Assembly: GCA_965220505.1 (NCBI GenBank)
Contig: CBDCQE010000003.1
Span: 198,024 to 262,023, forward strand
Length of the DNA stretch: 64,000 nt
Reading direction: 5' to 3'
Origin: Dehalococcoidia bacterium
Lineage (GTDB): Bacteria; Chloroflexota; Dehalococcoidia; Lucifugimonadales; UBA3495
Part shown: piece by piece, positions 12,985 through 37,335 of the stretch
Layout: every line of letters starts with the position of its first letter
Numbering within the stretch: the stretch's first letter is position 1
Made by a program: the position numbers and the translations under genes
Notes under the pieces: model-generated
Told to the model about the DNA's origin: nothing
The model's database searches: none
The model's input: the letters and a program-made list of their open reading frames with translations, nothing else

Positions 12985-13004
12985 GTGATTTTGGAGGGGA
13001 GACT

Positions 13005-15071: not shown

Positions 15072-15884
15072 TCACAAACACCGCTCCGCCTCGGAACGGA
15101 TGTAGTCCCGGAACTGCTGGGGCAGCCCGGCAGCCTCGGCGGCCTGCGCGTTTTCCTGAATGCGCTCCGGGCGGGAGGTGGTGGGTATGGCCGAACTCAC
15201 GCGTTGGTCGGAAATTACCCAGGCCAGCAGGGCCTGGGCCCAGGTGCTGATGCCGTAGTCCCGCAGCGGCGTGAGGTCCGGCTGATGTTTCAGGTCCAGG
15301 ACGTAGCGGCCCTTCTGCAACGGCTCCATCACCAGGATGCCGGTGCCCAGTTCCTCGGCCAGGGGCAGCAGTTCGTCCTCAACGTCCCGGTTCATCACGT
15401 TATAGGGGATCTGGACCGTGTCCACTCGACCCTGGCGCATCAGGTCCATGATGGTGGGGTAGGCATCAGGCACCATGGCAGACACCCCCAGCATGCCGAT
15501 CCTGCCCTCTCCCTTGAGCCGCTCCAGAGTGGGGAGGTGAGTCTGCCAGTCGATCATGTTGTGGACTTGGAATAGATCGATGTAGTCGGTATGCAACAGT
15601 TCGAAGGAACGGGCGATTTGGGCTTCGCCAGCCTCCTTGCCCTCGGTGAGCACCTTGGTGGCAATATAGAACCGGTCGCGGCGGTCCTCAGTGATCTCGC
15701 CCAGGACCTGCTCCGCGTTGCCGTACCAGGCGGCGGTGTCGATCAGGTTCACGTCGCTGTCCAGGCAGTTGTCCACGATCTGCCTTCGGACGGCGATCTC
15801 ATCCTGGTCGGCAACATCGAAGGTTCGTAATGTGCCCAGGCCGATGACTGAAACGTCCAGGTTGCCAAGTTTGCGGAATTCCAT
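15072..15884 (-). CDS. aldo/keto reductase
   Basis: MEFRKLGNLDVSVIGLGTLRTF..., IDTAAWYGNAEQVLG and LHTDYIDLFQVHN are AKR motifs. Start set at the ATG at 15884; the upstream extension of the tracked ORF looks non-coding. Confidence 0.85.
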   Translation of the reverse strand: MEFRKLGNLDVSVIGLGTLRTFDVADQDEIAVRRQIVDNCLDSDVNLIDTAAWYGNAEQVLGEITEDRRDRFYIATKVLTEGKEAGEAQIARSFELLHTDYIDLFQVHNMIDWQTHLPTLERLKGEGRIGMLGVSAMVPDAYPTIMDLMRQGRVDTVQIPYNVMNRDVEDELLPLAEELGTGILVMEPLQKGRYVLDLKHQPDLTPLRDYGISTWAQALLAWVISDQRVSSAIPTTSRPERIQENAQAAEAAGLPQQFRDYIRSEAERCL

Positions 15885-16168
15885 CTTTGTTGACCTCGCC
15901 CAGGTGTCTAATGCAATCATGTACACAGGGGATGCGCGGGATTTATCCCCAGCGGTTGTACCACTTACCACGCCAGCCCGACCAGTCCCGAGCATGGCCC
16001 ATGTCCCAGCATCAGCCCTGGATCGGTTCCCGTCCACATTGATGGAAAGCGAATACGCGTGAGACGTGCCCGGCTCTGGACGGCCACGCGCCAGCGGAGT
16101 ATCTTGCGGCTTGGTACTCCCGGGCTGAGGTTTCAGCAACATGACCCAGAGAACGACGAGGTTGAACC

Positions 16169-17524
16169 ATGCCTGAACTCCACGAGCTTTCGGTGGTGGA
16201 AGCCGCCGCGCAGATTCGCGAAGGAACCCTGTCGCCGGTGGCGCTGGTAGAGTCGTTGCTGGCACGCATTGACGCGCTGGACGGCGACCTGCGGGCGTGG
16301 GTCACAATTGACCGGGAAGCGGTGCTCTCGGCGGCCCGGCAGCGGGAGGCTGAGGTCCAGCGGGGTGACCCGCTCGGACTGATCCACGGCGTTCCTGTCG
16401 GCTTGAAGGACATCTTCTTCACCGAGGGCATGCTCACTGCCTGCGGATCGAAGGTGTACTCCGACTTCGTGCCCGATTTTGACGCTACCTCGGTGGCCAA
16501 CATCAAGGCGGCCGGCGGGATCATCCTGGGCAAGGCGGTCACCACCGAATTTGCCTCCTCCGACCCCTCACCGACGCGCAACCCGTGGAACCTGGAGCAC
16601 ACGCCCGGCGGTTCCAGCAGCGGATCATCTGCGGCGGTGGCGGCGCGGATGGTTCCGGCCGCTCTCGGCTCGCAGACCGGCGGGTCTACCTGCCGGCCGG
16701 CCGCGTACAACGGCATCGTGGGCGTGAAGCCCACCTACGGGCGCATCTCACGGTACGGGGTGGCCCCGTTAAGCTGGTCGCTGGACCACGTGGGCATCCT
16801 GACCCGAACCGTGGCCGACGCCTCCTTGATGCTGACCGTACTCAGCGGCGCGGACGACAACGACCCCGGCAGCCTGCGCGAACCCGTGCCCGACTTCGCC
16901 GCGCAGATGGCCGAGCATGATCGGCCCCCGCGCATCGGGCTGGTGCGGCAGTACTTCCAGGATTATGCCACGCCGGAAATGTGGTCGCACACGGAGGAAA
17001 TCGCGAACCGGCTGGCGGAGGCCGGGGCCGAGGTTGAGGAAATCCCGTTGCCCGACAGCTTCGCCGTAATCCACAGCGCCCAGCGTGTCGTGTCAAACGT
17101 CGAGTGCGCGGCAATCCACGGGGCCAATCACCGCACCCGCGCCGGCGACTACGGCCCGCGCATCCGGGCCGGCATGGAGATGGGCATGATCATGCCCACG
17201 CCGGCCTACCTGAAGGCCCAGCGGCTGCGACGGCAATTCCGTGCCGACCTGAGCGAGATGGCTGCAAAGGTTGACGTGGTGATGACGCCGGCCATGCCGG
17301 CGCCGGCTCCCCGGGATCTGAACACCACCGGCGATGCGGCGTTCCAGGCGCCGTGGTCGGCAGCAGGGTTGCCCACGGTGGTGGTCTCGACGGGCTTGAG
17401 CGAACTGGGCATGCCTATGGCGGTGCAGTTCGGCGGGCCGTGGGCCCAGGAGGGCAGGGTGCTGGGCGCCGCGCAGTGGTGCGAGCGGATTGCCGGGTTG
17501 AACCAGGCGCCGCCCATCGGTTGA
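16169..17524 (+). CDS. amidase (amidase-signature family, GatA-like)
   Basis: GVPVGLKDIFFTEG and the GGSSSGSSAAVAA amidase-signature Ser/Gly-rich stretch. Confidence 0.9.
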   Translation: MPELHELSVVEAAAQIREGTLSPVALVESLLARIDALDGDLRAWVTIDREAVLSAARQREAEVQRGDPLGLIHGVPVGLKDIFFTEGMLTACGSKVYSDFVPDFDATSVANIKAAGGIILGKAVTTEFASSDPSPTRNPWNLEHTPGGSSSGSSAAVAARMVPAALGSQTGGSTCRPAAYNGIVGVKPTYGRISRYGVAPLSWSLDHVGILTRTVADASLMLTVLSGADDNDPGSLREPVPDFAAQMAEHDRPPRIGLVRQYFQDYATPEMWSHTEEIANRLAEAGAEVEEIPLPDSFAVIHSAQRVVSNVECAAIHGANHRTRAGDYGPRIRAGMEMGMIMPTPAYLKAQRLRRQFRADLSEMAAKVDVVMTPAMPAPAPRDLNTTGDAAFQAPWSAAGLPTVVVSTGLSELGMPMAVQFGGPWAQEGRVLGAAQWCERIAGLNQAPPIG

Positions 17525-17536
17525 CATCATGTCACG

Positions 17537-20833: not shown

Positions 20834-20937
20834 CGAAGAACCTTGGGCATCGATTGCATTCTGCGCATGGCCTACAAGTCGGCAAAACAGCAAAAACGGC
20901 CCCATCTGGGGCCGCTTCTGACTAGGAAATCGGGAAT

Positions 20938-20959
20938 GTGGTGCCGAGGGGCGGATTCG
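20938..20959. repeat. 22-bp direct repeat identical to the 3' end of tRNA-Phe (candidate distal att site)
   Basis: gtggtgccgaggggcggattcg at 20938-20959 is identical to 31700-31721 (21 nt of the tRNA 3' end plus 1 nt), in the same orientation. Including the 4 nt immediately upstream of each copy, the match is 25 of 26. Confidence 0.75.
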
Positions 20960-21072
20960 CCATTCTGCGTGAAGTAGCGTTTTGTCGAAGCCTGTTTGGC
21001 GAGATTCCCTACTCAAAATCAAGAATTGGGGTCAGTGTAACACGGTCTGGTTATGTGGAGACGGGCAGGCGC

Positions 21073-22071
21073 CTACAAGTTTATTGAGGGTTCCTCGTAA
21101 TCCTTTAGCTTGTTGTAGATTTGAAGCCGGTGATGGTAGGACTCCAAAACTATGATCCGGTCGTCTGCGTCAACGTTGACCGCCACTGGCCGCCGGAACC
21201 GCCATTCAGGCTCCAGATCTGTCCGTCGCCTGGCTTTGATGATATCCGGATTGGCGTCGATGTAGGTCTGGGCCCATGGCGAAGGCTCTTGGGCGTCACC
21301 GACCAGCGCCGTAATATATTGGCCGTCGGCGGCGTAGATCTGGACTCGGTGGTTCCCCCAGTCGGTTACGTATACATCTCCATCTGAGTCCACAGCTACA
21401 CCGGATGGCCCTTTGAGCGAACCCACCCCGGCGCTGGAGCCTTCGAACTTAACGAGCAACTCTCCAGTAGGGGCGAATTTTTGCACCCGGTTATTTCCCC
21501 AATCCGCGACGTAGATGTTGTCCTGGCGGTCGATGCAGATTCCCCATGGCATCTCCAGATCTCCGTCACCGCCACCTCGCTTCCCGAATTTGGACTGAAA
21601 CTCACCGATCTGGTTGAAACTCTGCACCCGGTGATTCAGGCTGTCCACCACCCAAACGGTTCCCCGGGAGTCGAAAGCGATTCCTGACGGTCCGTTTAGC
21701 TGCCCGTCTCCGCTGCCGGGCCTGCCCCAGTGATATCGGTAACTACCCTCTTCACTGTAAATGGTTACCCGGTTGAGATACTCGTCCGAAACGAACACTC
21801 GGCCGGTACGGTCCAAATCAATTGACCGGGGCCAAACGAAGCGCCCGTCTTCCTCGCCGACGGAGCCGAACTGTCCTTGAAAATCGTGGTCAAAGTTGAT
21901 CTTGGTGACACGCTGACCCAATTGTTCCACACCGCGGCTCAACACATAAATGCGACCGTTCGATCCCAGGACGAAATCCTGGGGAGCCCAAAATCCCCAG
22001 CCGGCCTGACTGTACATGCCTATGCAGTAGCTGTAGTCATACACCCTGCCGGCAGCGACGGTGGTCAGCAT
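21073..22071 (-). CDS. NHL-repeat beta-propeller protein
   Basis: Six repeats of the type G.F..P.GIA.D..G.IYV.D..N.R.V.F (for example GPSGIAFDSRGTVWVVDSLNHRVQSF). Confidence 0.8.
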   Translation of the reverse strand: MLTTVAAGRVYDYSYCIGMYSQAGWGFWAPQDFVLGSNGRIYVLSRGVEQLGQRVTKINFDHDFQGQFGSVGEEDGRFVWPRSIDLDRTGRVFVSDEYLNRVTIYSEEGSYRYHWGRPGSGDGQLNGPSGIAFDSRGTVWVVDSLNHRVQSFNQIGEFQSKFGKRGGGDGDLEMPWGICIDRQDNIYVADWGNNRVQKFAPTGELLVKFEGSSAGVGSLKGPSGVAVDSDGDVYVTDWGNHRVQIYAADGQYITALVGDAQEPSPWAQTYIDANPDIIKARRRTDLEPEWRFRRPVAVNVDADDRIIVLESYHHRLQIYNKLKDYEEPSINL

Positions 22072-22107
22072 ATCCCCTCTCCCGCGAACTATTTTGGGGT
22101 CCCAAAG

Positions 22108-23250
22108 CTACATGAAGGACATTTGCTCGAAGTGTCCACCGACGATGGGTACAGGATCGAGTCCCAGCCACTTTTCCGCCAAAGTGGAGTAGAAGCCACG
22201 GAAATCATAGTTGGGCGCCAGGTCTCCCTGAGTGAGATCCCCCGGTTCCAGCGAGGGATACGTCCCGTACATTCCACCATTCACCCGGTCGCCAATGGCG
22301 AACGCTACCCCAGCCGCTCCGTGGTCGGTACCAGTGCCATTATCGCGGACGCGGCGCCCAAACTCGCTGAACAACATGATAACCACCTCGTTTGAGGCGT
22401 CGTGCTCACGCAGGTCGGCGAAGAAGTCGCGTATGGCAACGGAAATTTCCGTCCAAAGTTTTTCATGTGGTCCCAGCTGGTCATAGTGGGTGTCGAAGGG
22501 CCCGTGGGAGGTGTAAAAGACCTGGGTGCCCAAGCCGGCCAGATGCACTTGGGCCACGTCTCTGAGGCGCCTCGCGATGGAATTGTTGGCGTACTCCACG
22601 TTTGAAGAATAGGTTTCGGGAGCAACCCGGATGATGTCGGCTCCGCGCAACGCATCCCGTCCTGCCTGTCCCAGATATTCCATGGTCGGCCCGGTGCCGA
22701 TGGTTGGAGCGTACATGCGGGCAAAGGTCTCCAACAACTGGACACGATCTTGCTCGGAGGCGATTCCCGGATTTGATGAGAGTACGCCGTATGAAGGAAG
22801 GTGGTTGACAGAAGTAACAGGAACCCCCTTCATGGCCAGTGCCCGAGGCAAGCCCTGGCCCAAGTTAACTCCCTTCAGCACGTTCTCGCCGTCAGGGTCC
22901 AAGTCCCGGACGACCTTGGCGAGCCAGCCGTCAATACCGATGGAATCCGGCTCGCAGGTATGCCAGATGTCCATGGCGCGAAAGTGCGAACGGGGTGAAT
23001 TTTCAAACCCGATTCCGTGAATGATTGCCATGTTGCCCTGGTCGTAGATTTCTTTCAACGGCTCCGAATCGGCCCGGAATGCCAGTTGGTCATCTATGGG
23101 CAGTAATCGATCTTCAGGAACATGGACCTTGGGCCGGTTATCCCAATACAGGGGATTGCTATAAGGAACAATCGTATTGAGATAGTCGTTGGCCCCAGTC
23201 AGCTCCAGCACGACCAGCACGGGGTCTTTATGGGTTGATGCCATTTTCAT
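22108..23250 (-). CDS. DUF1501 (sulfatase-like) protein
   Basis: VLVVLELTGANDYLNTIVPY and the FSEFGRRVRDNGTGTDHG motif are typical of DUF1501. Confidence 0.85.
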   Translation of the reverse strand: MKMASTHKDPVLVVLELTGANDYLNTIVPYSNPLYWDNRPKVHVPEDRLLPIDDQLAFRADSEPLKEIYDQGNMAIIHGIGFENSPRSHFRAMDIWHTCEPDSIGIDGWLAKVVRDLDPDGENVLKGVNLGQGLPRALAMKGVPVTSVNHLPSYGVLSSNPGIASEQDRVQLLETFARMYAPTIGTGPTMEYLGQAGRDALRGADIIRVAPETYSSNVEYANNSIARRLRDVAQVHLAGLGTQVFYTSHGPFDTHYDQLGPHEKLWTEISVAIRDFFADLREHDASNEVVIMLFSEFGRRVRDNGTGTDHGAAGVAFAIGDRVNGGMYGTYPSLEPGDLTQGDLAPNYDFRGFYSTLAEKWLGLDPVPIVGGHFEQMSFM

Positions 23251-23279
23251 GTCCTTCTACATCAGTTGCATGCTCTTGC

Positions 23280-24695
23280 CTAGGCAAACTGATATTCTCG
23301 CGAGGCGGCGATCAAGGTCAAGATCCTGCTCACATTGTGCAATGTAGCGCTGAATTCTTCGTGGGTGCTCCAGCCTAGATCGCCACATTTTTCGGCATGG
23401 GCAATCAATTCAGAGTGGGTCGTCTTACTGACTTCCAACGGTCCCATCGCATCGAGACAAGCTTCCACTATCGCCTGGGGGGAATGATCCCCATGCACAT
23501 GCACATTCACCAACACCCGTTTGACGATAGCCTGCACGCCGGGTAGTGAGACGTCTCCAAATATCCTCGCGGCAAAGTTCACCCGGCGCATCAAAACGCC
23601 GGGGTCGATCCATTCTGAGCCTGTGTGCCAACCCTCCACGCTGGGAGGATTGAGCAGCCCCTGTCCCTGCCAACCGCACTCCAACGCCAAATTGTTGAGT
23701 CCTGGCTTGAAGCCTTCATAGTTGCCCGCCATACGCACAGTGCCAACGATCAATTCAGCCGGGCTTTTCACCCGGGCGAAGCGGGCATTCTTGAAGAACT
23801 CTGAGTTGAACAACGTTCGTAAAATAGACCGGATGTCGCCGCGGGATTCATTGTAGGCATCCGCCAACAACTCGATGGCTTCAGGGTCAACTGGTGGTGT
23901 AACGTTCCAACTGGCGACATGGGGCTCGTCGGCGACGAAGAACCTGTAGAGGTGACGGGCCAGGAACCGGGCCGTAGCCGGTTGGTCCGCAATAATGTCC
24001 ACGATGTCTTCGCCATTGAAGTTCCCGGTATACCCCAGGAAGGTCTTCTCCCGATCGTCGTGGTCCTCAGGTTTGTAGTCGAATAGCCAGTGGAAACGAC
24101 CGTAAGGATTACGGGGAATCTTTGGGGCAATCGTCCATCCGGTAAAGGCCCTGGCCGCTTCCCTGATATCATCCTCGGAGTAGTTTCCGACTCCGAGGGA
24201 GAAAAGCTCCAACAGCTCCCGCCCCCAGTTTTCATTTATGGCGCCGTCACGATTTCCCTGGTTGTCCAACCAGAAGATCATGGCTGGCGACTTTGCAACC
24301 TCTACCAGCAGGTCGCGGTAAGTACCCAATCCGTATTCACGGAAGATGGCAATCTGGCGAGTCAGCTCCAGTGGATTGTCCACCTTGGAGTTGCCGGTGG
24401 CGAACAACTGATGCCAGAAGAGGGCCATCTTCTCTTCCAGAGGCCGTTTGGTGTTGATCATCCGGAACACCCAATTGGCCTGATTTATTGGCAGCGCCCC
24501 GGCCCCCTCATAACCCGGGAAGAACCGGTACAGCAGTTCGTCGTCTATGGCCGGCTGCCGCTCTGGATGCAGAAGCTCCTCGACCACGGCTTCGTAGCCT
24601 TTGGAGACGCGCTCCTCCAGTTCCTCACGGGTATCACCGAAGCCTGCCCGTCTCATTAAATGGGCCATCAATCGAATGTCTTCTTGGTGGGGCAT
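23280..24695 (-). CDS. DUF1800 protein
   Basis: HLMRRAGFGDTREELE, MALFWHQLFATGNSKV and NENWGRELLELFSLGVGNYSEDDI are DUF1800 hallmarks. Usual pairing with DUF1501. Start set at the ATG at 24695, after GGAGAGG. Confidence 0.85.
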   Translation of the reverse strand: MPHQEDIRLMAHLMRRAGFGDTREELEERVSKGYEAVVEELLHPERQPAIDDELLYRFFPGYEGAGALPINQANWVFRMINTKRPLEEKMALFWHQLFATGNSKVDNPLELTRQIAIFREYGLGTYRDLLVEVAKSPAMIFWLDNQGNRDGAINENWGRELLELFSLGVGNYSEDDIREAARAFTGWTIAPKIPRNPYGRFHWLFDYKPEDHDDREKTFLGYTGNFNGEDIVDIIADQPATARFLARHLYRFFVADEPHVASWNVTPPVDPEAIELLADAYNESRGDIRSILRTLFNSEFFKNARFARVKSPAELIVGTVRMAGNYEGFKPGLNNLALECGWQGQGLLNPPSVEGWHTGSEWIDPGVLMRRVNFAARIFGDVSLPGVQAIVKRVLVNVHVHGDHSPQAIVEACLDAMGPLEVSKTTHSELIAHAEKCGDLGWSTHEEFSATLHNVSRILTLIAASREYQFA

Positions 24696-25393
24696 TGCCG
24701 CCTCTCCGTTTATCGAGCCCAGAACGCTAAGCCAGGCGCCGCTTCGCAACATATTAGGATTGGCCAAGTCGAATGTCAACAAAAAGCCGTAACAGGTAAC
24801 CGTTCAGAGTTGACGGCCCGTGGTAGCGGCGTTGGGAGCGATCATCAGCGCAAATCGCTGGTGGAGGCAGTCAGGTGCCCAGCCTGGGCGCTGATCGGCC
24901 AGGCGTGTGGCGGCATGGTGGACAGGTCAAACGCCGAGGACGGCGTCAGGAAGGGAGGGGCAGGGCGTGCAGTCTCGCCAGGGCAGAGCTGAACTGGTTT
25001 TGCCAGGGCCAGCCCTGAGGGAGATGCAGGGTGAGACGACGGGCTTTGCGGGTGAGGCGTCCGGCCAGGGAGAAGAAGCGTCGTCGGAGAGTCTTGGTGG
25101 TTGCCACCGGCTCTCCCAGACCGATGCGCGTGGTCCAGCGAGCCAGGTTATGGGCGATGACCCGGACGGTCAGCCAGGCGGCGTCGGGCTCACTCGCGAA
25201 GGGAGTGTAGCTGGTCTCGGCCACATCGGCCACGCCTTCCATCCAGTACGGGATGGGCGTCCACTCCGCCTCGGGTACGGCCTCGATGAGATTGCGCAGG
25301 GTCTGGTGCCGGCGTACGGTGATGGAGAAGCGGACACTCTTATCACGACAGGCGGCGACGATGGGGTGAGTGTAGAAGCCGCTGTCGGCCCGT

Positions 25394-25406
25394 CCGCCTG
25401 AGGCGG
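25394..25406. repeat. 13-bp perfect palindrome ccgcctgaggcgg (copy 1) inside the IS1380 remnant
   Basis: Read directly. Conceptual deletion of the 13 nt joins GATGPLI to RADSGFY in frame. Confidence 0.9.
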
Positions 25407-25480
25407 ATGAGCGGTCCGGTGGCTCCGGCGTAGCGCACCCGGCTGATCGTTTCACGCAGGAAGCGGGCCGCGCCCCGAGC

Positions 25481-25493
25481 CCGCCTGAGGCGG
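25481..25493. repeat. 13-bp perfect palindrome ccgcctgaggcgg (copy 2) inside the IS1380 remnant
   Basis: Read directly. Conceptual deletion of the 13 nt joins ARLRQGRAN to ARGAARFLRETISRVRY in frame. Confidence 0.9.
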
Positions 25494-26208
25494 ATTGGCC
25501 CGTCCCTGGCGCAGCCTTGCCATCAGTACGTCGCCGGTGCCGGCAGCGACGGCCAACAGCGGGTGATAGCCCCGCTGGCCAGCGCCGACGCCACCAGCGT
25601 CAGCAACTTGTCGCCCTCATTCGCCCGACCAGGTGCATCTCCCAGATCAACGTGGCGGTCCACCAGCTCGCCCAGCCCCAGATGGTGGACCAGGGTGATC
25701 GGTAGCAGCAGCCCGGCATTGGCCACCAGGCGGTGGTCATCAAAGGCGACGTGGATGCGGTCGGGGCGCTCAGGCGGTAGCATCCGATGGGTGCTCCTTG
25801 TTGCGGGTTGGTTTTCTGTTTCAAAAACCGTTATCCCCGAAGTGCAGGGGCACTTTCTCATCCCCTCACCACGGCGCCACACTCATCCTTTCGGTGGATT
25901 GGGGATAAGGCACATTGTGTGCCGGAGAGTGCGCCATGTATCGATGGTTCCTATACGATTCACGCAATTAACATAATTAAATCGCAGATATTCACGTGAT
26001 TTTCACAATCTGGTGATAATGTGGTTGGCATGGTCAGGTTGGGGTGTTCGCTGCTATAGACCTGCGGGCATCGCCACACCTCACGGCCACACATACACAA
26101 CGCTTTCTCCGGCGGCGTGATGGCTGCGCTCATAACTGGCGCAGTTGCCGTCGGAGGCATAACGACCGACCCGCGCGCGTTTCATGCCGACGCGGGAACC
26201 ATACGGAG

Positions 26209-29200
26209 ATGCCTATCATGGCCACAATAACGGCTTGGTCGAATGCTGTCCGCCTGTCTCTCGTCATCTCGCTGGTGTCATTGATCCCTCTCGTCGCGCT
26301 ATTGGCCGGCTACGACACCGTCCACGGGTCAGTGCCCAACCCGTCCCGCGGGTTTGACCTTGATCCAGACCACGATAACGCGCGCGGTGTCTGGTCCGGC
26401 GGTTCCACCATGTGGGTGGTGGACAACGCCGACGACCAGTTGATCGCATACTCCATGGCCACGGGCGCCCGGTTGGCGGACAAGGACATCGACCTGACCA
26501 GCTCCAACTCTAAACCGCAGGGCATCTGGTCGGACGGTTCCATCATCTGGGTGGTGGACTGGGACGATACCAAGCTCTACGCCTACAACCTGGACTCCGG
26601 CGCAAGGATGGAGAACCGGGACATTGACCTGACCGGCAGCAATGATGGGCCGCGGGGCGTGTGGGGTGCGTTCGGCATCATCATGGTGGTTGATAAGGAC
26701 GACGACCATGTCTACGCGTACAACCAGACCAGCGGGCAGCGTCAAACGGGCTATGAGTTCGACCTAGCCGCAGGCAACGACAATCCGTGGGGCCTGTGGG
26801 GCGGGAACAATGTCATATGGGTCACCGATACCAGCGATGACAGCGTTTATGCCTACGACCTGGTGGTGCGCACCCCCAAACCGCTCCTCAACCTCCGCCT
26901 TTCCCTGGAGAACCGGGACCCTCGCGGCGTCACGGGCAACAAAAGCCTCATGTGGGTGGTTGACGACGAGGACAAGCACGTCTACGCCATGCGCTACAAG
27001 GATTTCCGGCATCCCGACGACGAAATCGACATCAGCGGCGTGGTCATGCCCAAAGGCATCTGGACCGACGGCACGACCATATACGTGGTGGACACCGGAA
27101 TCGGAGGCGGCCCCGGGTTGGTTGCCTATAACGTTGGCGACGGGTCTCGCAACGCATCCAAGGACGTCGACCTCAGCCACACCGGCTACACGCCGATGTC
27201 TGTCTGGTCGGACGGTTCACAAGTTTGGGTGCAATTCGCGGAGCACAATTCGGTCAAAGTATATTCCCTGAGCACCGGCACCGAGATCTCCAGGAATTTC
27301 CCGATCATCCTGAGGCATGAGAACGGAGATGCCGCCGGCATCTGGTGCGACGGCGCCACCATGTGGGTCTCAGATTCCGGGGACGACAAGATCTACGCCT
27401 ACAACTTCGCTACCGGACTGGATCAGACCGACAAGGACTTCGATCTCGATTCCAAAAACACGGATCCCGGCCAGATCTGGGGCGACGGCGAGACCCTGTG
27501 GGTCATGGACGCCACGGACAAGCACGTCTACGCCTACGATCTGTCCACGGGCGCTCGCCGTGAGGGAAAAGAGTTTCGGCCCGTACCGGACAACAATAAC
27601 CTCAACGGAGCTATCACGGGCCACGGCCTGCGCTTCTGGGTGGTCGACACTCAGGACGACCACCTGTATGCCTACGGCAAGGCGAACACGCCGCCGTCGT
27701 TCAGCAGTAACTCGGCGGTTTTCAAAATACACCACACGCTGACCGGACACAACCTGATCGGTCCGGTACCAGAAGTCACCGAGGTTGACGAAGGTGACAC
27801 GCTGACCTACTCGATTTCGGGTACCGACAGCAGTCGATTCACCGTGGACTCCAGCACCGGAGATCTGTACACGAAACGCGACGCCGGAAGTTTTACCGCC
27901 GGCGCTGAGCTGTCAATCAAGGTATCCGTAAGCGACGGGAAGAACCTGCTCGACGGGGTGAGCTCCAGCAAGGACGACACGGTAAACGTGACCATCAGGG
28001 TACTGCAAAACGCCGATCCGGAATTCGTAACCGCCGACGGTTCGGTGTTCACGGTCAGCGAGGATGCCAGCGCCGGGGACACCGTCGCCCAACTGAACAT
28101 CGCCGACCTGGATGGCGACACGCCGTCCTATACGTTGACCTACCAAAATGGCGACGCCCACACTCCCTTCACGATCAGCGGCAACCAGATCAAAATCGCA
28201 ACCGGCGAAAGTCTGGATTACGAGAGCCAGGATTCCTACCAACTCACGCTGGACATCTCGGACGGCAAAGACGAGGACGGCAATTCCGACACCACTACCG
28301 ACGACAGCATCACGGTGGAAATCCAGGTCACCAACGTTGACGAAAGCGGCGAGGTCGCCCTGGGCAGCGCCCAACCGCAGGTCGACACGGCAATCGCTGC
28401 CTCCCTGACCGACCCGGACGGCGTGAACCTGGAGAATGGCAACCAGGTCAACTGGGTAGTGGAACGGAGCACTGACCCGGAATCGGGGACCTGGACCGAG
28501 GTGTCAGATACCGACGCCTCCAGCGCGACATTCGATTACACCCCGGTCACAGCGGACGTGGGAAATCACCTGCGGTTCGCCGCCAGTTACTGGGACAACG
28601 AATCGGATACCACCCGGAAGACGGCGCAGGTGATTTCCACGAACACCGTGCTGGCCGCGCCGCCATCTAACCTGCCGCCGGCATTCAACGAGAACGCGCC
28701 GATCACTCGTTCCTTTCCGGAAGACGCCGAAATCGGCGCCAACGTGGGGTTACCCGTGCAGGCCACCGACCCGGACGACGACACTCTCAGATACGGTTAC
28801 AACACTGTGGGTACCAGCCGATTCCAGGTAAATTCCGTGTCCGGCCAAATCAACATGAACTCCAACCTCTTGCTGAGTTACGAACGCAGACCCACTTCTT
28901 ACATCTGGGTTTTGGTCCGGGATAGCAAGGATCAGTACGGCAATGCTGACACCGAATGGGATGCATCCGCCCTGGTGAAAATCAACATCACGAACGTGGA
29001 AGAGGCCGGCGAGGTGGAACTGACTTCGGACAACCCCCAGGTTGCCGTGGAACTGGCCGCGTCGCTTACCGACCCAGACGGCTCCGTCACCAATCTCACC
29101 TGGCAATGGCAGACCGCCAGCAGCGCCCAAGCGACCACGTGGACGGATATCACCGTCGCCACGTCGGAAAAATACACTCCCGTTGCTGCCGACGTCGGCA

Positions 29201-30861
29201 AGTTCATCAGGGCGCAAGCTTCCTATGACGACGGCGAGGGCACGGGCAAGCAGGCCCATGGGATCGCCAGCCAGGCGGTGCAGGGACGGGCCTCTAATGG
29301 AGCGCCGGAGTTCGACGAAGGCAGCGCCGCGACGCGTTCCCTGTCCGAAGACGCAGTATCCGGCTCCTGGGTCGGCGACGGCGTTACGGCCACTGACCCG
29401 GAGAGCGACACGCTGACCTACTCTCTGGCCAGCGGGGACGACTCCGATCAGTTCGCCATCGATGCCGCCACTGGCCGGCTCCAGGTCGCTTCGGGCGCGA
29501 CCCTTGACTACGAGACCGATCCCTCGCTCACCGTGGTGGTGCAGGTCTCCGACGGACTGGACGCGGACCACAACCAGGACGCAGCCATTGACGACACCAT
29601 CACCGTCACCGTCAATCTCACCAACGTGGACGAGGCGGGTCGGGTGTTGCTGTCATCTCTAGAGCCCGAGGTGGACAGCGAGATCACGGCCACGCTGAAC
29701 GATCCGGACGGGAGTGTCAGCGCGAGCAATTGGCAGTGGACTAAATCGTCGGACGACGGCAGCACTTGGACGGATATCGTCGGCGCCATCTCCGCAACTT
29801 TTACGCCCACCTCAGACGAAGCTGAAATGCACCTGCGGGCCACGGTTTCCTACACCGACGGTGAGGGACCAGGCAAAAGCGCTTCCCGGGTGTCGACGGA
29901 TGCGGTGGAGCCCGCCGTAACCGAAGCCATCCAACCGGACCCACCCGGGACGTCCACGGACCCGCAGGGGATTGACACCAGTCTCACCTCGCTGACCCTC
30001 GCCGGCATACCCTTTTCCTTTGACAGCGACACCCTCTATTACGAAGTCAGCACCCCTAACTCGGACCGCCGCACCAGGGTAACCGCCGCGCCAACTGCCG
30101 AATCGGGCGTTTCGGTTTCGATTATCCCCTCCGACAGCAGGCCTTCCAGCAATGGCCACCAGGTCGATCTGAGCGTGGGCGTCAACTACGTCGTCGTAAC
30201 TGTGACCCACGACGAAAGCAGCGAGTTGAGAGTCTACGTGGTGCAGGTAACCCGGGAGCCGTTGGCGCTGACTCCGGAAGACGATTGTTCGCAATACATC
30301 GTTGATCTGGCGCCGGTCCATTGCGGTTCCACCAAGTTTGCGGACTATCGGATTGAGAGCAACGGGAGTTATAGCATCGACTGGAGCAAATGGGGCGACG
30401 CCCGCTCCAGCGTCACCGGATACACCGTGACCATCGAAGAGTATATGCGCCGGACCTACCACAAGAACGGACAGAGAGTGAGCGAAGCCGATCTGCAGAA
30501 CGTCTATGAGGGTTGCGAATTCAGCAACGACGCCTGGGCTTGTGAAGGCCCGTTGGTTGACGTTTACCACGTGGACGGCGCGGGACAGCCGACCCAGCGC
30601 CACACGGTATTGAGCAATACCCACCAGACGGAGCTGAGCGGCACGCTCGGGTTCACCGGCGTCAGGGACGCCCAGGAAACCTTCCACCGTTGGAGCGGGG
30701 ACCCTCATGATCCCAACAACGAGCCCACCGCCGTGGCGTACACCACCAAAACGTCCGAAGTTGACCGCTACCGGTTCGTCCCCCACACAGCAAACGGTGA
30801 CCTCAAAACCAAGAAAATCACGATCGCCGGCGTGGCCTTCGCAAACCCCTTCGCTCCGTAG
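26209..30861 (+). CDS. giant surface/adhesin-like protein: N-terminal anchor, ~10 propeller-like repeats, cadherin-like and DPDG modules, cadherin-like beta-sandwich
   Basis: Start at the ATG at 26209, after GGAG. TM/signal segment VRLSLVISLVSLIPLVALLAG.
- About ten ~46-aa repeats (GIWSDGSIIWVVDWDDTKLYAYNLDSGARMENRDIDL type), approx 26380-27690.
- Cadherin-like units (DEGDTLTYSISGTDSSRFTVDSSTGDLYT...), interleaved with LTDPDG...W.W...YTP...D.G..LR modules, approx 27700-29900. Confidence 0.85.
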   Translation: MPIMATITAWSNAVRLSLVISLVSLIPLVALLAGYDTVHGSVPNPSRGFDLDPDHDNARGVWSGGSTMWVVDNADDQLIAYSMATGARLADKDIDLTSSNSKPQGIWSDGSIIWVVDWDDTKLYAYNLDSGARMENRDIDLTGSNDGPRGVWGAFGIIMVVDKDDDHVYAYNQTSGQRQTGYEFDLAAGNDNPWGLWGGNNVIWVTDTSDDSVYAYDLVVRTPKPLLNLRLSLENRDPRGVTGNKSLMWVVDDEDKHVYAMRYKDFRHPDDEIDISGVVMPKGIWTDGTTIYVVDTGIGGGPGLVAYNVGDGSRNASKDVDLSHTGYTPMSVWSDGSQVWVQFAEHNSVKVYSLSTGTEISRNFPIILRHENGDAAGIWCDGATMWVSDSGDDKIYAYNFATGLDQTDKDFDLDSKNTDPGQIWGDGETLWVMDATDKHVYAYDLSTGARREGKEFRPVPDNNNLNGAITGHGLRFWVVDTQDDHLYAYGKANTPPSFSSNSAVFKIHHTLTGHNLIGPVPEVTEVDEGDTLTYSISGTDSSRFTVDSSTGDLYTKRDAGSFTAGAELSIKVSVSDGKNLLDGVSSSKDDTVNVTIRVLQNADPEFVTADGSVFTVSEDASAGDTVAQLNIADLDGDTPSYTLTYQNGDAHTPFTISGNQIKIATGESLDYESQDSYQLTLDISDGKDEDGNSDTTTDDSITVEIQVTNVDESGEVALGSAQPQVDTAIAASLTDPDGVNLENGNQVNWVVERSTDPESGTWTEVSDTDASSATFDYTPVTADVGNHLRFAASYWDNESDTTRKTAQVISTNTVLAAPPSNLPPAFNENAPITRSFPEDAEIGANVGLPVQATDPDDDTLRYGYNTVGTSRFQVNSVSGQINMNSNLLLSYERRPTSYIWVLVRDSKDQYGNADTEWDASALVKINITNVEEAGEVELTSDNPQVAVELAASLTDPDGSVTNLTWQWQTASSAQATTWTDITVATSEKYTPVAADVGKFIRAQASYDDGEGTGKQAHGIASQAVQGRASNGAPEFDEGSAATRSLSEDAVSGSWVGDGVTATDPESDTLTYSLASGDDSDQFAIDAATGRLQVASGATLDYETDPSLTVVVQVSDGLDADHNQDAAIDDTITVTVNLTNVDEAGRVLLSSLEPEVDSEITATLNDPDGSVSASNWQWTKSSDDGSTWTDIVGAISATFTPTSDEAEMHLRATVSYTDGEGPGKSASRVSTDAVEPAVTEAIQPDPPGTSTDPQGIDTSLTSLTLAGIPFSFDSDTLYYEVSTPNSDRRTRVTAAPTAESGVSVSIIPSDSRPSSNGHQVDLSVGVNYVVVTVTHDESSELRVYVVQVTREPLALTPEDDCSQYIVDLAPVHCGSTKFADYRIESNGSYSIDWSKWGDARSSVTGYTVTIEEYMRRTYHKNGQRVSEADLQNVYEGCEFSNDAWACEGPLVDVYHVDGAGQPTQRHTVLSNTHQTELSGTLGFTGVRDAQETFHRWSGDPHDPNNEPTAVAYTTKTSEVDRYRFVPHTANGDLKTKKITIAGVAFANPFAP

Positions 30862-31119
30862 CCGGCAGGCTGCGCCTCGTCAAACCGGCGACATCCCTCA
30901 CGCGTGCCCTGCTGGTCATCGCGAGGAGCGAAGTCCGCCTCTGGCGGACTCGCAATGACAGCTCTGACGAAAATGGGTACGCGCGAGTGACCGCCGGTGA
31001 AGGCTGCGCAATCCGGCATGTGCGGGTTGATCGCAACCGGTCCACGTAGGTCCTGATCCAGACGCTCTTCGCGCCCAATCCGGCCCAACGCGCCAACGGA
31101 CCGGTGAAACCCACGCGGT

Positions 31120-31614
31120 ATGATGGGGCACCTTGTCCGAACTCTCCGACTGGACGAGGCCCACGCCTACGACGGCGCGCTGGGCACCCACTGCCTCTAC
31201 CTGCTGCACCGCCTGCAGCAGAAGCGCCGGGAGCTCATGGCGCAGCTCGAGCCGCTGCGGGTGATCGCCGCCAGTGCCACCATCCACAACCCGGCTCAGC
31301 ATCTCGAAACGCTGACCGGTCTCGCCTTCCAGTTGGTGAACGACCGCTACAATGGCAGCCCCCGGTCCGAGCTCACCGTGCAGCACGTGGTCGGCCGGGA
31401 TCCTCGCGACGAGGGCTGGCGGGACTTGCAGGCGGCGGTGCGGGAGGTGACCAGTGAGGGTCCCGACTGGGACTACATCGCCTTCATCGACGACCGGCAG
31501 CTGGCGGAGCGGTCCGCCGTGGGCATCGAAGCGGCCAGGAGCATCACCTGGGGCTGTTCCCCAATCGCGGCGCCCTGCGCGTTTGGTACTGTGCTGACCT
31601 GTCCAGCAACGTAG
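31120..31614 (+). pseudogene. fragment of a DEAD/DEAH-box superfamily-2 helicase (motifs II-III only)
   Basis: RLDEAHAYDGALGTHCLYLLHRL (DEAH box region) and RVIAASATIHNPAQHLETLTG (SAT motif) resemble YprA/Lhr-like helicases. Only ~165 aa are present: no Walker A upstream and no complete C-lobe. Confidence 0.5.
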
Positions 31615-31700
31615 GCTCGTGTCGGTTTGTCCCACGTTGCGACGGGTCAGCGAGCGATCCCAGCTATTTTTGAACTTGGATGGCGATCCTATTCAGAAAG

Positions 31701-31777
31701 TGGTGCCGAGGGGCGGATTCGAACCACCGACACCGGCATTTTCAGTGCCGTGCTCTACCAGGCTGAGCTACCTCGGC
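31701..31777 (-). tRNA. tRNA-Phe (anticodon GAA), CCA encoded
   Basis: Reverse complement is GCCGAGGTAGCTCAGCCTGGTAGAGCACGGCACTGAAAATGCCGGTGTCGGTGGTTCGAATCCGCCCCTCGGCACCA. It folds by eye into a cloverleaf with a 7-bp acceptor stem, anticodon loop CTGAAAA and T-loop TTCGAAT. Confidence 0.95.
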
Positions 31778-32016
31778 TGAAGGGAGGTTAATCATAGACG
31801 GCGGCATCGGCCGTGTCAATTCAGTCTGCTCGTTCGCAAGCGTCTCGCAATGACAAACCGGGTACGCGTTCGGAGCGGGCTGACCGGGGCAGGCATAGCA
31901 CCATCACGCCGGGGCCCCGCTGTCTGCAGACCGCCGCATGGGGTAGAATGCCCGGCACGCCTAACGCCTTTCCCGGAGCCGCAGAGCGGAGCCGACCGAC
32001 CGCCGCCAGGTGCGAT

Positions 32017-33579: not shown

Positions 33580-33689
33580 GTCAGAAGCAGGATTTGCGGG
33601 ATTTTGTGATTGGACAGGATTGGGAGGGCTTCATCAGGGAACGGTTCCAATTCTGGTAATCCTCAAATCTTGAAAATCCTGCTTCTGAC
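33580..33689. repeat. 110-bp palindromic MITE-like repeat, copy A
   Basis: gtcagaagcaggatttgcggg...aaaatcctgcttctgac. The termini are inverted repeats. Intergenic. Highly similar to the copies at 37049 and 62200. Confidence 0.9.
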
Positions 33690-33881
33690 GGTTCCGTGCC
33701 GGACGCCGGCGGCTGGGCGGGTGATTTGGGCGCAAATGGGGGGAATCGGGCGAAATCGGGGTGAGGTTATGGAGATGTGATCAAAAACTCGCAGTAGATT
33801 GTGCTTCGGTCATGCAGTTTTGCGGTATAGTACGGGCCGAGTTACGGTGACGAGACCAGCCGGACTAGGAGGGCACTCACC

Positions 33882-36800
33882 ATGTTCCGCCGTGAAAACC
33901 CCATACCTGTCAGCCCCCCTCCGATCTTTAGGATAGTGAAACTTACATCGTGGCGCGCGCTGTTCGCGCTGCTGGCGATTGGGCTGCTGGCCGCAGGAGT
34001 GGCCGGCTTTTTCATGTCCGGCGCAGTCGCACAGGCCCAGGAGCAGGAGACGGTCCTGCCGTCCAGCTACGATGCCGACGGCGACGGGCTGATTGAGATC
34101 AGCAGCCTGGACCAGCTCAACGCCGTCCGTTGGGACCTGGACGGCGACGGCGTACCCTCGGCAGGCAACGCGGACGCCTATTCCGCCGTCTTCCCGGTTG
34201 CCGACGAAGGCTCGGTATGCCCCGCCGACGCCACCTGTACAGGGTACGAGCTGACGACAGACCTGGACTTCGACGAGAACGATGACGGTGAAATCACCAG
34301 CGCCGACAGCGCATACTGGAACGACGGGGTGGGGTGGACCCCCATCGGCGGGTATGCCGCCGTGTTCGAAGGCAACGGCCACACCATCGCCAACCTGTTC
34401 ATCAGACGCGCAGCCGATTACGCGGGGCTGTTCGGCTCAGTGGGAGACGGCGGCATAGTGCGCAACTTGGCGCTTACGGGCGTATCCGTCAGCGGTGGGG
34501 ACTTCGTGGGCGGGCTGGCTGGATACAGCACTGGAGCGATCATCGCCAGCTACGCCACGGGTTCGGTCAACGGTAGTTCCTCAGTGGGAGGTCTGGCTGG
34601 ATACAACACTGGAAGGATCGTCTCCAGCCATGCTGCGGGTTCGGTCAGCGGCACAAACGACGTGGGCGGTTTGGTTGGATACAACATTGGAGGGATCATC
34701 GCCAGCTACGCCACGAGTTCGGTCAGCGGTAGTTCCTCCGTAGGGGGCTTGGCCGGGAAAGGCCAGGGCAGGATTATCAACGCCAGCTACGCCACGGGTT
34801 CGGTCAGCGGTAGTTTCTCCGTGGGGGGACTGGTCGGACATAACAGTGCAAAGATCAGCGCCAGTTACGCCACGGGCTCGGTCAGCGGTAAATCCGACGC
34901 GGGTGGCCTGATCGGAAAAAACAGTGGAAGGATCAGCGCCAGTTACGCCACGGGTTCGGTCAACGGCACACAGGCTGTGGGCGGCCTGGTTGGAGAAAAC
35001 ACCGGAAGGATCAGCGCCAGCTACGCCATGGGCTCGGCCAGCGGTACAAAAGGCGTGGGCGGCTTGACCGGATACCACACATACGGAGGGATCAAAGCCA
35101 GTTACGCCACGGGTTCGGTCAGCGGCACAGAATATGCAGGTGGCCTGGTTGGATATTACCACTCTTACCTTGGAACGATCAGCGCCAGCTACTTCGACGC
35201 TCAGACATCCGGCCGGGCGATTGCCGTGGGCAATGACGATACCGACAAAAACGGGGCCATCGACGGCGCTGAGACCGCCTCCTCCGGCGCCACTCCCCAG
35301 ACCACTGCCGCGCTCCAGTCCCCCACCGGGTATACCGGCATTTACTCCGACTGGAACCTGGACCTGAACGCCAACTCTCAGCCGGATAGCCCCTGGGACT
35401 TCGGCACGGCGTCCCAGTATCCGGCGTTGAAGGGGGCCTCCAACTGGCAGGATTTTGGCTATCAGACGCGCCGGCCGCTCTCCCTGACCTCCAGTATCTC
35501 CGGGCTCCAGGCAACGCTGAGTTGGGACGACATCACCGAAACGGCGTGGACCGGCACGCCACGGGCATCCTACGCCCTTTATAGGGACGGCGAGAAGGTG
35601 CCCGACTACGACGAAAGTTCACGCTCCTACACCGATACTAGCCTCACCCTGGGCCAGCAGTACACCTACCAGGTGGCTCTGCTGCTGGACGGTGTGGAAC
35701 ACCGCCGCAGCAACGAGGTCTTTACAACGATCAGCGAACCGCTCTCCTTTGGCGACGCACAGCACTACAATTACTACTGGTATCAGAACCAGCACAACGG
35801 CCGGCTGGACCTGCCCACGGCCACAGGCGGCGTTCTTCCACTGACCTACACTGTCAGCCCCGACCTGTCCCCCGGCCTGGTCTTTGACTCTGGCTATCTC
35901 ACCATCGATGGAATTCCCACCGAGACCCAGGAGCGCATCCAGTACGCCTACACGGTCACCGACGCCAACGGCGACACGGCGTCGCTGTCCTTCAGCATCC
36001 TGGTGGCGCCGGATCCAACGACGGTCGCCGAGACCAGCCCGGTGACGGTGAGCGCAACCAGCCTTTCCATCCGCGAGGGCGACCCCGCCGCAACCTACAC
36101 CGTGACGCTGGAGGTGGGGCCTACGGAGAACGTGGTCATCGCGATCAGCAGCAACAACGGCGACGTTACGGCGCAGCCGTCCAGCCTCACCTTCACCACC
36201 GGCAACTGGCAGACGGCACAGACAGTAAGCGTCAGCGCCGGCCAGGACGACGACCGGGTGGACGACACCGCCACCTTCAGCCACAGCGCCAGCGGCGGCA
36301 ACTACGACGGCGTTACGGTGGCGTCCGTAACCGTCAGCGTAACCGACGATGACAGCGACCGGGAGGTGCTGCGGGACTTCTACAACGCCACCGGCGGTCA
36401 GAGCTGGACCAACATCGGCAACTGGCTGAGCGACAAACCGCTGGGTGAGTGGCACGGTGTAACCACCAACGGATCGGGGCAAGTAACTGGGCTGGCCCTC
36501 CGGGACAACGGACTGAGCGGGTCGCTGCCCGCCACATTGGGCAAGATGGAACACCTGCAAGTCCTGTCCCTGGACCGCAACAACATCAGCGGTAGCCTAC
36601 CCGCCGAGTTCGGCAACCTGTCCAACCTGACCCGGCTGGCGATGAACCGGAACAGTCTCAGCGGTGCCATACCGTCGCAGTTGGGCAACCTGTCCAACCT
36701 GGGCATCATCGGCTTGGCGCGGAACAGCCTGAGCGGGTCGCTGCCCACCAGCCTGGGCAACCTGAGCAGTTTGACCAAGGTGTCGCTGCACGACAACACC

Positions 36801-36971
36801 GGGTTGAGCGGGGCGCTGCCGTCGGGGTTCACCAACCTGGCGAACCTGCAACGGCTGGCCATCGCCAACACCGGGTTGTGTCTCCCGGACACCCAGGCGT
36901 TCGACGACTGGCTGGCCGGCGTTCCCGACAAGCCCGGGATCGACGGGCTGACGGACTGCGCCTCGCCATAG
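33882..36971 (+). CDS. large secreted protein with GLUG-motif repeats, Calx-beta-like module and C-terminal plant-type leucine-rich repeats
   Basis: Signal/TM segment WRALFALLAIGLLAAGVAGFF.
- DGDGLIEISSLDQLNAVRWDLDGDG.
- More than 12 repeats of ASYATGSVSGxxxVGGLVGxNxGxI (GLUG), approx 34400-35200.
- SLSIREGDPAATYTVTL...VTVSVTDDD (Calx-beta-like), approx 36040-36350.
- LRRNT-like REVLRDFYNATGGQSWTN, then LSGSLPxxLGNLSNLxxLxLxxNSLSG repeats, approx 36360-36900. Confidence 0.85.
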   Translation: MFRRENPIPVSPPPIFRIVKLTSWRALFALLAIGLLAAGVAGFFMSGAVAQAQEQETVLPSSYDADGDGLIEISSLDQLNAVRWDLDGDGVPSAGNADAYSAVFPVADEGSVCPADATCTGYELTTDLDFDENDDGEITSADSAYWNDGVGWTPIGGYAAVFEGNGHTIANLFIRRAADYAGLFGSVGDGGIVRNLALTGVSVSGGDFVGGLAGYSTGAIIASYATGSVNGSSSVGGLAGYNTGRIVSSHAAGSVSGTNDVGGLVGYNIGGIIASYATSSVSGSSSVGGLAGKGQGRIINASYATGSVSGSFSVGGLVGHNSAKISASYATGSVSGKSDAGGLIGKNSGRISASYATGSVNGTQAVGGLVGENTGRISASYAMGSASGTKGVGGLTGYHTYGGIKASYATGSVSGTEYAGGLVGYYHSYLGTISASYFDAQTSGRAIAVGNDDTDKNGAIDGAETASSGATPQTTAALQSPTGYTGIYSDWNLDLNANSQPDSPWDFGTASQYPALKGASNWQDFGYQTRRPLSLTSSISGLQATLSWDDITETAWTGTPRASYALYRDGEKVPDYDESSRSYTDTSLTLGQQYTYQVALLLDGVEHRRSNEVFTTISEPLSFGDAQHYNYYWYQNQHNGRLDLPTATGGVLPLTYTVSPDLSPGLVFDSGYLTIDGIPTETQERIQYAYTVTDANGDTASLSFSILVAPDPTTVAETSPVTVSATSLSIREGDPAATYTVTLEVGPTENVVIAISSNNGDVTAQPSSLTFTTGNWQTAQTVSVSAGQDDDRVDDTATFSHSASGGNYDGVTVASVTVSVTDDDSDREVLRDFYNATGGQSWTNIGNWLSDKPLGEWHGVTTNGSGQVTGLALRDNGLSGSLPATLGKMEHLQVLSLDRNNISGSLPAEFGNLSNLTRLAMNRNSLSGAIPSQLGNLSNLGIIGLARNSLSGSLPTSLGNLSSLTKVSLHDNTGLSGALPSGFTNLANLQRLAIANTGLCLPDTQAFDDWLAGVPDKPGIDGLTDCASP

Positions 36972-37032: not shown

Positions 37033-37048
37033 ATTGGCGGGGGGGAAC

Positions 37049-37158
37049 GTCAGCAGCAGGATTTGCGGGATTTTATGATTGGGCGGGATTGGGAGAGTTC
37101 CAGCGCAGAACGGTTCCAATCCTGATAATCACGAAATCTTGAAAATCCTGCTGCCGAC
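37049..37158. repeat. 110-bp palindromic MITE-like repeat, copy B
   Basis: gtcagcagcaggatttgcgggattttatgattgggcgggattgggag...ccaatcctgataatcacgaaatcttgaaaatcctgctgccgac. Intergenic, between the GLUG/LRR gene and rpsA. Confidence 0.9.
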
Positions 37159-37335
37159 GACTTACGAAAGGGAGGTACGCGGGCCTCCGGGTTTTGCGGT
37201 TGCAATTTGTGTGCGGTATAAGTATTATTAGGCAGGCGAATTGTGGGGAAAGTGATCCAAGCGAGAACGAAGTACCTGCTCAACCTGTGCGGCCGCGTAA
37301 CCGGCCGTAAGCCAGAGTAAGGAGCAGCTTAACTG

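Follow-up and report, generated by a model that had tools for sequence, protein, structure and literature searches.

How did a segment of 10.7 kb come to lie between an intact tRNA-Phe(GAA) gene and a direct copy of the 3' end of the same gene in a Dehalococcoidia bacterium? The segment belongs to the stretch of 64,000 nucleotides analysed here, called the window below, and had been described, from the sequence alone, as a decayed integrative island (the original prediction). The insertion at tRNA-Phe of an element equipped with a tyrosine integrase, followed by the decay of that element, is the best account of the island and very probably the right one. The prediction is supported in this respect by the repeat, by empty sites in related species and by a polymorphism among close relatives. 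In contrast, the interior of the island is mosaic in content and probably does not consist entirely of original cargo. The coordinates of all features are collected in Table 1.

The repeat, GTGGTGCCGAGGGGCGGATTCG, is a 22-mer whose plus-strand copies occur in the whole window only at 20938-20959 and 31700-31721, exactly as predicted, and no third copy was found in the window when up to three mismatches were allowed. Read along the tRNA strand, it corresponds to CGAATCCGCCCCTCGGCACCA plus C, and extends from C56 in the T-loop through the encoded CCA to one base of the trailer. If one mismatch is allowed, the repeat in the window is 26 nt long. ARAGORN and Rfam agree on the tRNA gene, and bear out the claim that the second copy is made up of the last 21 nt of tRNA-Phe(GAA) and one flanking base. 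The two copies are 10,762 nt apart and lie on the same strand as direct repeats. Along the tRNA strand, i.e., towards lower coordinates, the intact tRNA is followed by 10.7 kb of DNA and then by the displaced 3' fragment, which is the orientation originally claimed and the geometry expected when an element inserts in the 3' portion of a tRNA gene. In islands of this kind, the regenerated target and the displaced fragment define the two island ends (Islander, PMC4383910).

When a single genome of each species was searched for exact matches to the 77-nt tRNA sequence, 39 tRNA-Phe loci were obtained, nearly all of which are from Dehalococcoidia or SAR202 metagenome-assembled genomes (MAGs), while three are titled only Chloroflexi or Chloroflexota. 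Related loci are denoted by L-numbers; L002 and L003 are both from the same 4.28-Mb genome, OZ242004.1. The 77-nt sequence of tRNA-Phe is 100% identical in the 39 Dehalococcoidia loci. Empty tRNA-Phe sites, which the original prediction had proposed to look for in related genomes, were found in ten species (L012, L017, L018, L020, L027, L029, L031, L035, L037 and L040). In these species, nothing separates tRNA-Phe from the trailer and terminator, which in the window come after the displaced fragment (20878-20937). An attB site reconstructed by joining the window sequence upstream of and including the tRNA to the sequence past attR is colinear with L017, L040 and L020 all the way from promoter to terminator. 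Among the empty-site species, L017 is nearest to the window: the S1 genes are 97.1% identical, and identity over 6.5 kb is 96%.

The island is not confined to the window. Locus L048, on a 421-kb contig (European Nucleotide Archive ERZ21862620), is 94-98% identical to the window over 20 kb and has the same gene order (SDR; NHL, DUF1501, DUF1800; IS1380 fragment; cadherin; helicase fragment; tRNA-Phe; Uma2). It carries the 22-mer at both island ends, 9,998 nt apart, in copies that are identical over 26 nt, and lacks the sequence corresponding to window positions 25159-25938, which are part of the insertion sequence (IS) remnant. Identities in the S1 gene among the window, L048 and L017 are approximately equal (97.4% for window and L048, 97.1% for window and L017, and 96.2% for the remaining pair). 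The island is thus polymorphic among close, nearly equidistant relatives, being present in L048 and absent from L017; the lack of an island-like polymorphism had been named as evidence against the prediction. Between the window and L048, identity ranges from 95.6 to 98.3% in the island and from 94 to 97% in the flanks; the island and its flanks have thus diverged to a similar degree, as expected if they were inherited together vertically.

The island interrupts a transcription unit. Promoter, tRNA and terminator form a unit that is cut in two within the 3' end of the tRNA gene, and the terminator is now 10.7 kb away. The TTGACA...TATGAT promoter region is kept at the empty sites of L017 and L020 as well as in L048. 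The terminator, which is read from 20920 to 20891, is the strongest in the region and begins 17 nt past the displaced fragment; in the ten empty-site species, a homologous and colinear terminator comes straight after tRNA-Phe. The intact tRNA of the window has no comparable terminator after it.

About 20 species feature a different sequence after the tRNA, which starts with TTTCTCAATAAGGG... We considered this sequence as a conserved island end and rejected it, because it can be aligned with the terminator-type trailer, shows 73-76% identity over approximately 170 nt, as an ordinary intergenic region does, and varies in rough agreement with the S1-gene tree. On these comparisons, it is regarded as the native trailer of other lineages. 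The region 3' of tRNA-Phe is rearranged in nearly every sampled species, and rapid gene turnover is reported for hotspots beside tRNA genes (PMC5635113).

Sequences on the inner side of both repeat copies are unique to the window and L048, except for a match of 72 nt in L026. In the closest relatives, the native trailer is unlike the stretch that directly follows the intact tRNA here (31629-31699); L026 alone has a trailer that matches this stretch, at approximately 80% identity, and L048 conserves it. The stretch next to the displaced fragment (20960-21051) matches L048 only. If arms of the original attP site have survived, these two stretches are the most likely to represent them. Should both arms be intact, an integrase whose gene lies elsewhere might still act on them in trans and excise the island. 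At 21010-21025, 13 nt resemble the trailer in inverse orientation. The idea that they are left over from an inverted tRNA-Phe locus was discarded because the match is not significant: a rough estimate gives about 1.3 matches expected, and no blastn hit was obtained at E<1e-4.

The following course of events would account for the locus. A mobile element, the attP site of which carried a copy of the tRNA-Phe 3' end, would have integrated site-specifically into tRNA-Phe by a crossover in or after the T-loop. We infer a tyrosine integrase as the agent, as we do the order of the subsequent decay events. A functional tRNA would have been rebuilt from element sequence at attL, and the native 3' end and terminator moved 10.7 kb away to attR. 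Integration would predate the split of the window and L048 lineages (~97% identity); in the equally close L017 lineage, the island would either never have been present or have been lost. The integrase and most backbone genes would then have been deleted, and the helicase gene reduced to a 400-bp piece. A copy of IS1380 would have inserted and decayed in turn, and the DUF1800-DUF1501-NHL module, attached to an IS1380 end, would have come to lie in the interval. In its present state, the island would be fixed, vertically inherited and non-autonomous, with the cadherin protein and the three-gene operon encoded by its live genes.

Table 1. Features of the tRNA-Phe island and its boundaries, ordered by position in the window.
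Feature	Position	Strand	Remarks
Original tRNA-Phe intrinsic terminator	20891-20920	minus	13-pair stem, 8 G-C pairs, T-rich tail
attR repeat copy (displaced tRNA-Phe 3' fragment)	20938-20959	minus	
Putative P arm of attR	20960-21051	minus	~90 nt; between operon module and displaced fragment
Operon module	21052-24813 (3.76 kb)	minus	own promoter at 24751-24779
NHL gene	21073-22071	minus	Pfam
DUF1501 gene	22108-23250	minus	Pfam
DUF1800 gene	23280-24782	minus	Pfam
IS1380-family remnant	24814 to ~25905	minus	frameshifted, two internal deletions; six-frame translation
Cadherin-domain surface protein gene	26044-30861	plus	Pfam Cadherin 8e-28, Cadherin-like 2e-8
Superfamily 2 (SF2) helicase pseudogene (DEAH...SAT), internal 400-bp piece	31150-31548 (open reading frame 31120-31614)	plus	translation
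Putative P' arm of attL	31629-31699	minus	~72 nt; directly after intact tRNA; probably element-derived
attL repeat copy	31701-31721 plus base 31700	minus	last 21 nt of tRNA
Intact tRNA-Phe(GAA)	31701-31777	minus	ARAGORN; Rfam RF00005, 67.9 bits
tRNA-Phe promoter, sigma-70-type	31791-31819	minus	TTGACA, 17 nt spacer, TATGAT (11/12 matches); directly upstream of tRNA
SIGNIFICANCE			given alongside the interpretation of the island

Several results weigh against this account. Neither an integrase, nor an excisionase, nor an integrase remnant was found in the window, so that the enzyme is deduced rather than seen. A Pfam scan of the open reading frames (ORFs) of the island revealed no recombinase or integrase domain, and phmmer searches of all stop-to-stop segments of the window with XerD, lambda Int and the N-terminal half of a P4-type integrase gave no match, XerD and lambda Int being approximate queries of limited sensitivity. 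Both outcomes agree with the earlier statement that the island contains no integrase. The same queries, with the same limit on sensitivity, detected no integrase at the 39 related tRNA-Phe loci; among the 25 most frequent Pfam families of the 77 ORFs located downstream of tRNA-Phe in relatives there is no integrase, and none of the 39 loci has a second copy of the core within 8 kb. An intact progenitor or attP form was not found in viral, metagenome, plasmid or phage searches. A search with the att core, as had been suggested for tracing the integrase lineage, gave 0 matches for the core 21-mer in viral contigs. The attR junction had a single match in Joint Genome Institute (JGI) metagenomes, a chance match with no similarity beyond the pattern, and the island had no match in a plasmid collection or, by megablast, in 50,697 phage records. 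Moreover, past the terminator the window and L048 enter the promoter region of an SDR gene, while L017, L040 and L020 share another flank. The operon occurs in L049 in an apparently ordinary chromosomal context, and part of the interval may for this reason not be derived from the element.

Composition, the comparison of which inside and outside the island had also been proposed, lends mild support at most. The GC content is 0.54-0.58 at 21-25 kb, compared with ~0.63 for the window, and the GC content at third codon positions (GC3) of the three operon genes is 0.67, compared with 0.72-0.95 in probable genes, the filter for which required GC3 >0.72. Inside the island, tetranucleotide usage correlates with that of the remaining window at 0.68-0.80; most windows outside it give 0.80-0.89. 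The signal is weak and confounded by repeat-rich genes: the lowest tetranucleotide values are those of the repeat-rich cadherin gene and of an LRR gene outside the island, and the window has further patches of low GC content.

The genes and remnants that had been listed as contents of the island (the NHL/DUF1501/DUF1800 trio, a decayed IS1380, a surface protein and a fragment of an SF2 helicase) are all present. The helicase piece is 83% identical at the DNA level to fragmented helicase genes of L044, L045 and L046. All 23 database homologs (23/23) are ≤273 residues long and reside on contigs of up to 4.6 Mb; some carry PF00270, others PF00271; since all are short, the family seems to exist only as fragments. 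Helicase fragments are often found beside PhD/PIN toxin-antitoxin pairs and transposases. In L045, helicase fragments are located in an island directly downstream of tRNA-Leu(CAA). This island features, at 15262-17528, a P4-type integrase (Arm-DNA-bind_3 and Phage_int_M) that is cut down to 208 residues by an intact IS1380 encoding a 441-residue transposase. Islands made by tRNA-targeting integrases and their erosion by IS1380 consequently both occur in the clade. By analogy, the cut integrase of L045 may be viewed as a snapshot of the decay proposed for the window island. A second copy of the tRNA-Leu 3' end was not found in L045 within 17 kb.

The cadherin-domain ORF encodes 1605 residues from the first GTG and approximately 1550 from the likely Met start; the L048 ortholog has 1547 residues, and no ortholog was found at any other related locus. 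The N-terminal part of the protein (encoded at 26377-27671) contains about ten degenerate repeats of 135 nt (45 residues) with the pattern W..DG...WV.D..D..VYAY. A large protein encoded downstream of tRNA-Phe in L040 proved unrelated to the cadherin gene, and an inversion model built on it was dropped.

The DDE_Tnp_1_4 transposase gene of the IS1380-family element survives as a remnant only, and the orthologous fragment in L048 carries PF13701. Aligned by blastn with the intact gene for the 441-residue PF13701 transposase of L045, the remnant falls into three pieces of 74-80% identity. Its right end at 24814 was set by comparison with L003, and its left end is approximate. No target-site duplication was identified at the remnant.

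Sequence comparisons among loci indicate that the DUF1800-DUF1501-NHL operon forms a module of its own, which relocates and at times takes an IS1380 end along. The module is 98.3% identical to its counterpart in L003, where the neighbouring SDR cluster shows only 90-93% identity, and 96.1% identical to that of L034, compared with 92.1% in the S1 gene; identities to L049, L050 and L051 are 95-97%. The 3' boundary lies at window position 21052, 24 nt past the NHL stop codon, and is the same in the four loci that include this end (the L003 locus ends inside the operon). Beyond the boundary, the window and L048 continue with the P arm and tRNA fragment, L049 and L050 with a DUF2283 gene, and L051 with a DUF418 gene. 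In L034, the module is 845 bp from tRNA-Phe and inverted relative to the tRNA. Upstream of the operon, L003 and L051 have an IS1380 3' end at a distance of 178 bp. The window and L048 lack these 178 bp, flanked in L003 by TCAAC on one side and TCAGC on the other. In L034, L049 and L050, the operon stands without any IS. The NHL protein belongs to a 90%-identity cluster of 759 members.

As the operon relocates independently, it need not be cargo of the element that made the repeat. The unit in question starts at the promoter and ends 24 nt after the stop codon; at 95-98% identity, it is shared by at least six genomes in five neighbourhoods. Conceivable, though unlikely, is the further step of regarding the operon as a discrete mobile cassette passed between SAR202-like Dehalococcoidia that occur together, with the eroded island as a landing pad for surface and eukaryote-like repeat proteins (cadherin, NHL and the adjacent LRR). 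Candidate mechanisms for such a cassette are one-ended transposition of IS1380 and recombination at IS ends. ISEcp1-type units, which belong to the IS1380 family, mobilise adjacent genes downstream of them. The window resembles these units in that the IS1380 remnant is upstream of the operon in the same orientation, and that an IS end plus operon recurs in L003 and L051. In contrast to ISEcp1 units, however, neither a flanking target duplication nor an alternative right end was identified here over 21052-25905, and the operon occurs without an IS in L034 and L049.

How much of the 10.7 kb arrived with the element is where the accounts of the locus part. The interval may be a composite that accreted at a hotspot, in which only the short arms, and perhaps the helicase fragment, survive from the element, while most of the DNA came later through IS1380-associated transposition or recombination, including the IS1380-linked operon module and possibly the cadherin gene. 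We consider this a serious candidate with a chance somewhat short of even, and it is really a refinement of the proposal that an integrase-bearing element inserted and decayed. It draws on the sharp boundaries that the operon shares across five other contexts, on the excess identity of the operon (95-98%) over core neighbours (90-93% for the SDR cluster in L003, 92% for S1 in L034), on the sharing of the IS1380 3' end and operon as a unit with L003 and L051, and on the quick exchange of genes at tRNA-side hotspots (PMC5635113). Furthermore, the homology of the IS remnant to L003 stops at 25187, which is a deletion joint with respect to the intact IS of L045 and suggests recombination between two IS copies. 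However, neither target-site duplications nor alternative inverted repeats were identified at the module ends, the module is free of any IS in L034 and L049, and the two occupied genomes, which already have the entire arrangement in common, do not reveal in which order the events took place.

The repeat itself might have arisen without an integrase, if DNA of another Dehalococcoidia species carrying its own tRNA-Phe and downstream sequence entered by homologous recombination at the tRNA and was joined illegitimately at the other side, the 3' end being duplicated by accident. The 72 nt after the intact tRNA do resemble the tRNA-Phe trailer of L026 and start like the native trailers of other lineages (CTTTCTSAAT...), the tRNA would be a good anchor given its identity in 39 species, and there is apparent microhomology (GCCGAC) at the junction just past the terminator. 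Yet such recombination would substitute one sequence for another and leave no duplicate; a clean direct copy with exactly these limits, T-loop to just past CCA, is what marks an integrase reaction between attP and attB (PMC4383910), and the sequence inside attR (20960-21051) shows no relation to any tRNA-Phe locus. This course of events is therefore improbable. Hardly worth entertaining is the idea that the 22-mer matches by chance, or belongs to a family of dispersed repeats that has nothing to do with integration. In 100 dinucleotide-preserving shuffles, no match to the 22-mer was obtained (0/100), in line with the earlier assertion that a chance match is negligible; the 3' core, which is present twice in the window, is single-copy at each of the 39 related tRNA-Phe loci (39/39), and the repeat is thus not a dispersed family, a possibility raised with the prediction itself; and the displaced copy is followed by the tRNA's own terminator. 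Insertion by an integrase into tRNA-Phe, with subsequent decay, accordingly remains the preferred explanation of the island ends.

Taken as such, the island is of an ordinary, well-understood kind, and a new instance in a little-studied clade. We class it as functioning like, and descending from, a tRNA-gene (tDNA) island, though it is no longer a complete member of that class. With the islands collected by Islander, which tyrosine integrases placed in tRNA or tmRNA genes, it shares the regenerated tRNA, the direct displaced 3' fragment, the block of identity from the T-loop to the 3' end and the empty site in relatives; in contrast to them, it has no integrase gene, which usually sits beside the tRNA, its backbone is almost fully eroded and its content is mosaic. 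Because the integrase gene is missing, the standard search, which combines an integrase with a tDNA fragment, would miss the island. Among the Pfam hits of the island ORFs there are no phage domains, as a prophage would contain, and no relaxase, coupling protein or type IV secretion component, as would be found in an integrative conjugative or mobilisable element.

The phe-tRNA (pheV/pheU) islands of Enterobacteriaceae have short direct repeats of the tRNA 3' end at their borders, and the islands at such sites are often degenerate. The target is the same tRNA species as here, and the 3'-end direct repeat is similarly about 20 nt long. In contrast, the host described here is from another phylum (Chloroflexota, Dehalococcoidia), and the genes encode surface and repeat proteins rather than virulence functions. 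Closer at hand, the tRNA-Leu(CAA) island of L045 is from the same clade, carries the same helicase pseudogene family (~83% identity) and IS1380, and is likewise directly 3' of a tRNA; it differs in its tRNA target and in having kept the N-terminal half of an integrase.

The locus documents site-specific integration at tRNA-Phe in uncultured marine SAR202-like Dehalococcoidia, with clean empty and occupied alleles at ~97% identity, and these alleles could serve to date the gain and decay of the island in the clade. It also illustrates a blind spot of integrase-based island finders. The surviving genes encode cadherin-domain and NHL-repeat proteins, and several related MAGs may stem from sponge metagenomes, to judge from their names. 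The recurring operon module is the only lead to something less ordinary.

A second breakpoint is located just after the terminator (...TTTTGCCGAC; window 20877-20886), and the hexamer GCCGAC is common to both sequences at this joint. Owing to this second breakpoint, the flank on the SDR side is not syntenic with the empty-site genomes. No database record was an exact match to the SDR protein of the window (taken with two alternative starts), to its NHL protein or to the product of the helicase fragment. Homologs of the SDR with approximately 90% identity carry Chloroflexota annotations. The SDR orthologs of three complete relatives (L001-L004) lie away from tRNA-Phe, and the homology extends only about 60 nt beyond the SDR start on the upstream side. 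The SDR gene was consequently rejected as an anchor for the empty site, as it is not a conserved neighbour of the tRNA. Genome OZ242004.1 (L002 and L003) contains two SDR-PNPOx pairs approximately 21.7 kb apart that encode identical SDR proteins; hydrolase, cupin, SnoaL and amidase genes, as in the window, follow only one of the two pairs.

Other features of the window are outside the island. A dispersed repeat of approximately 112 nt, with 84-91% identity between copies, occurs at 33580-33695, 37048-37159 and 62199-62310, and also in L002 (1883-2019), L017 (6353-6473) and L048 (12647-12760). Two of the window copies, in direct orientation, flank a gene encoding a GLUG/LRR protein of 1029 residues (33882-36971). 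This gene is present in the window and L048 and absent from L017, where a single copy of the repeat stands in its place.

ARAGORN reported a tRNA-Arg(CCT) of 99 nt at 60178-60276 on the plus strand, which is probably a false positive: Rfam has no tRNA there, and the interval falls inside an alpha/beta-hydrolase ORF (59962-60864; Abhydrolase_1, 1e-33). On the minus strand, an ORF of 653 residues (4258-6219) with a GmrSD_N domain (DUF262-type restriction endonuclease) occupies a patch of low GC content (0.56-0.58). The lowest GC content of the window (0.49-0.53, at 13-15 kb) coincides with a plus-strand ORF of 547 residues (12930-14573), in which the reverse transcriptase domain RVT_1 (2e-18) is fused to the restriction-endonuclease domain Mrr_cat (1.5e-6), and which may encode a defence-type reverse transcriptase.

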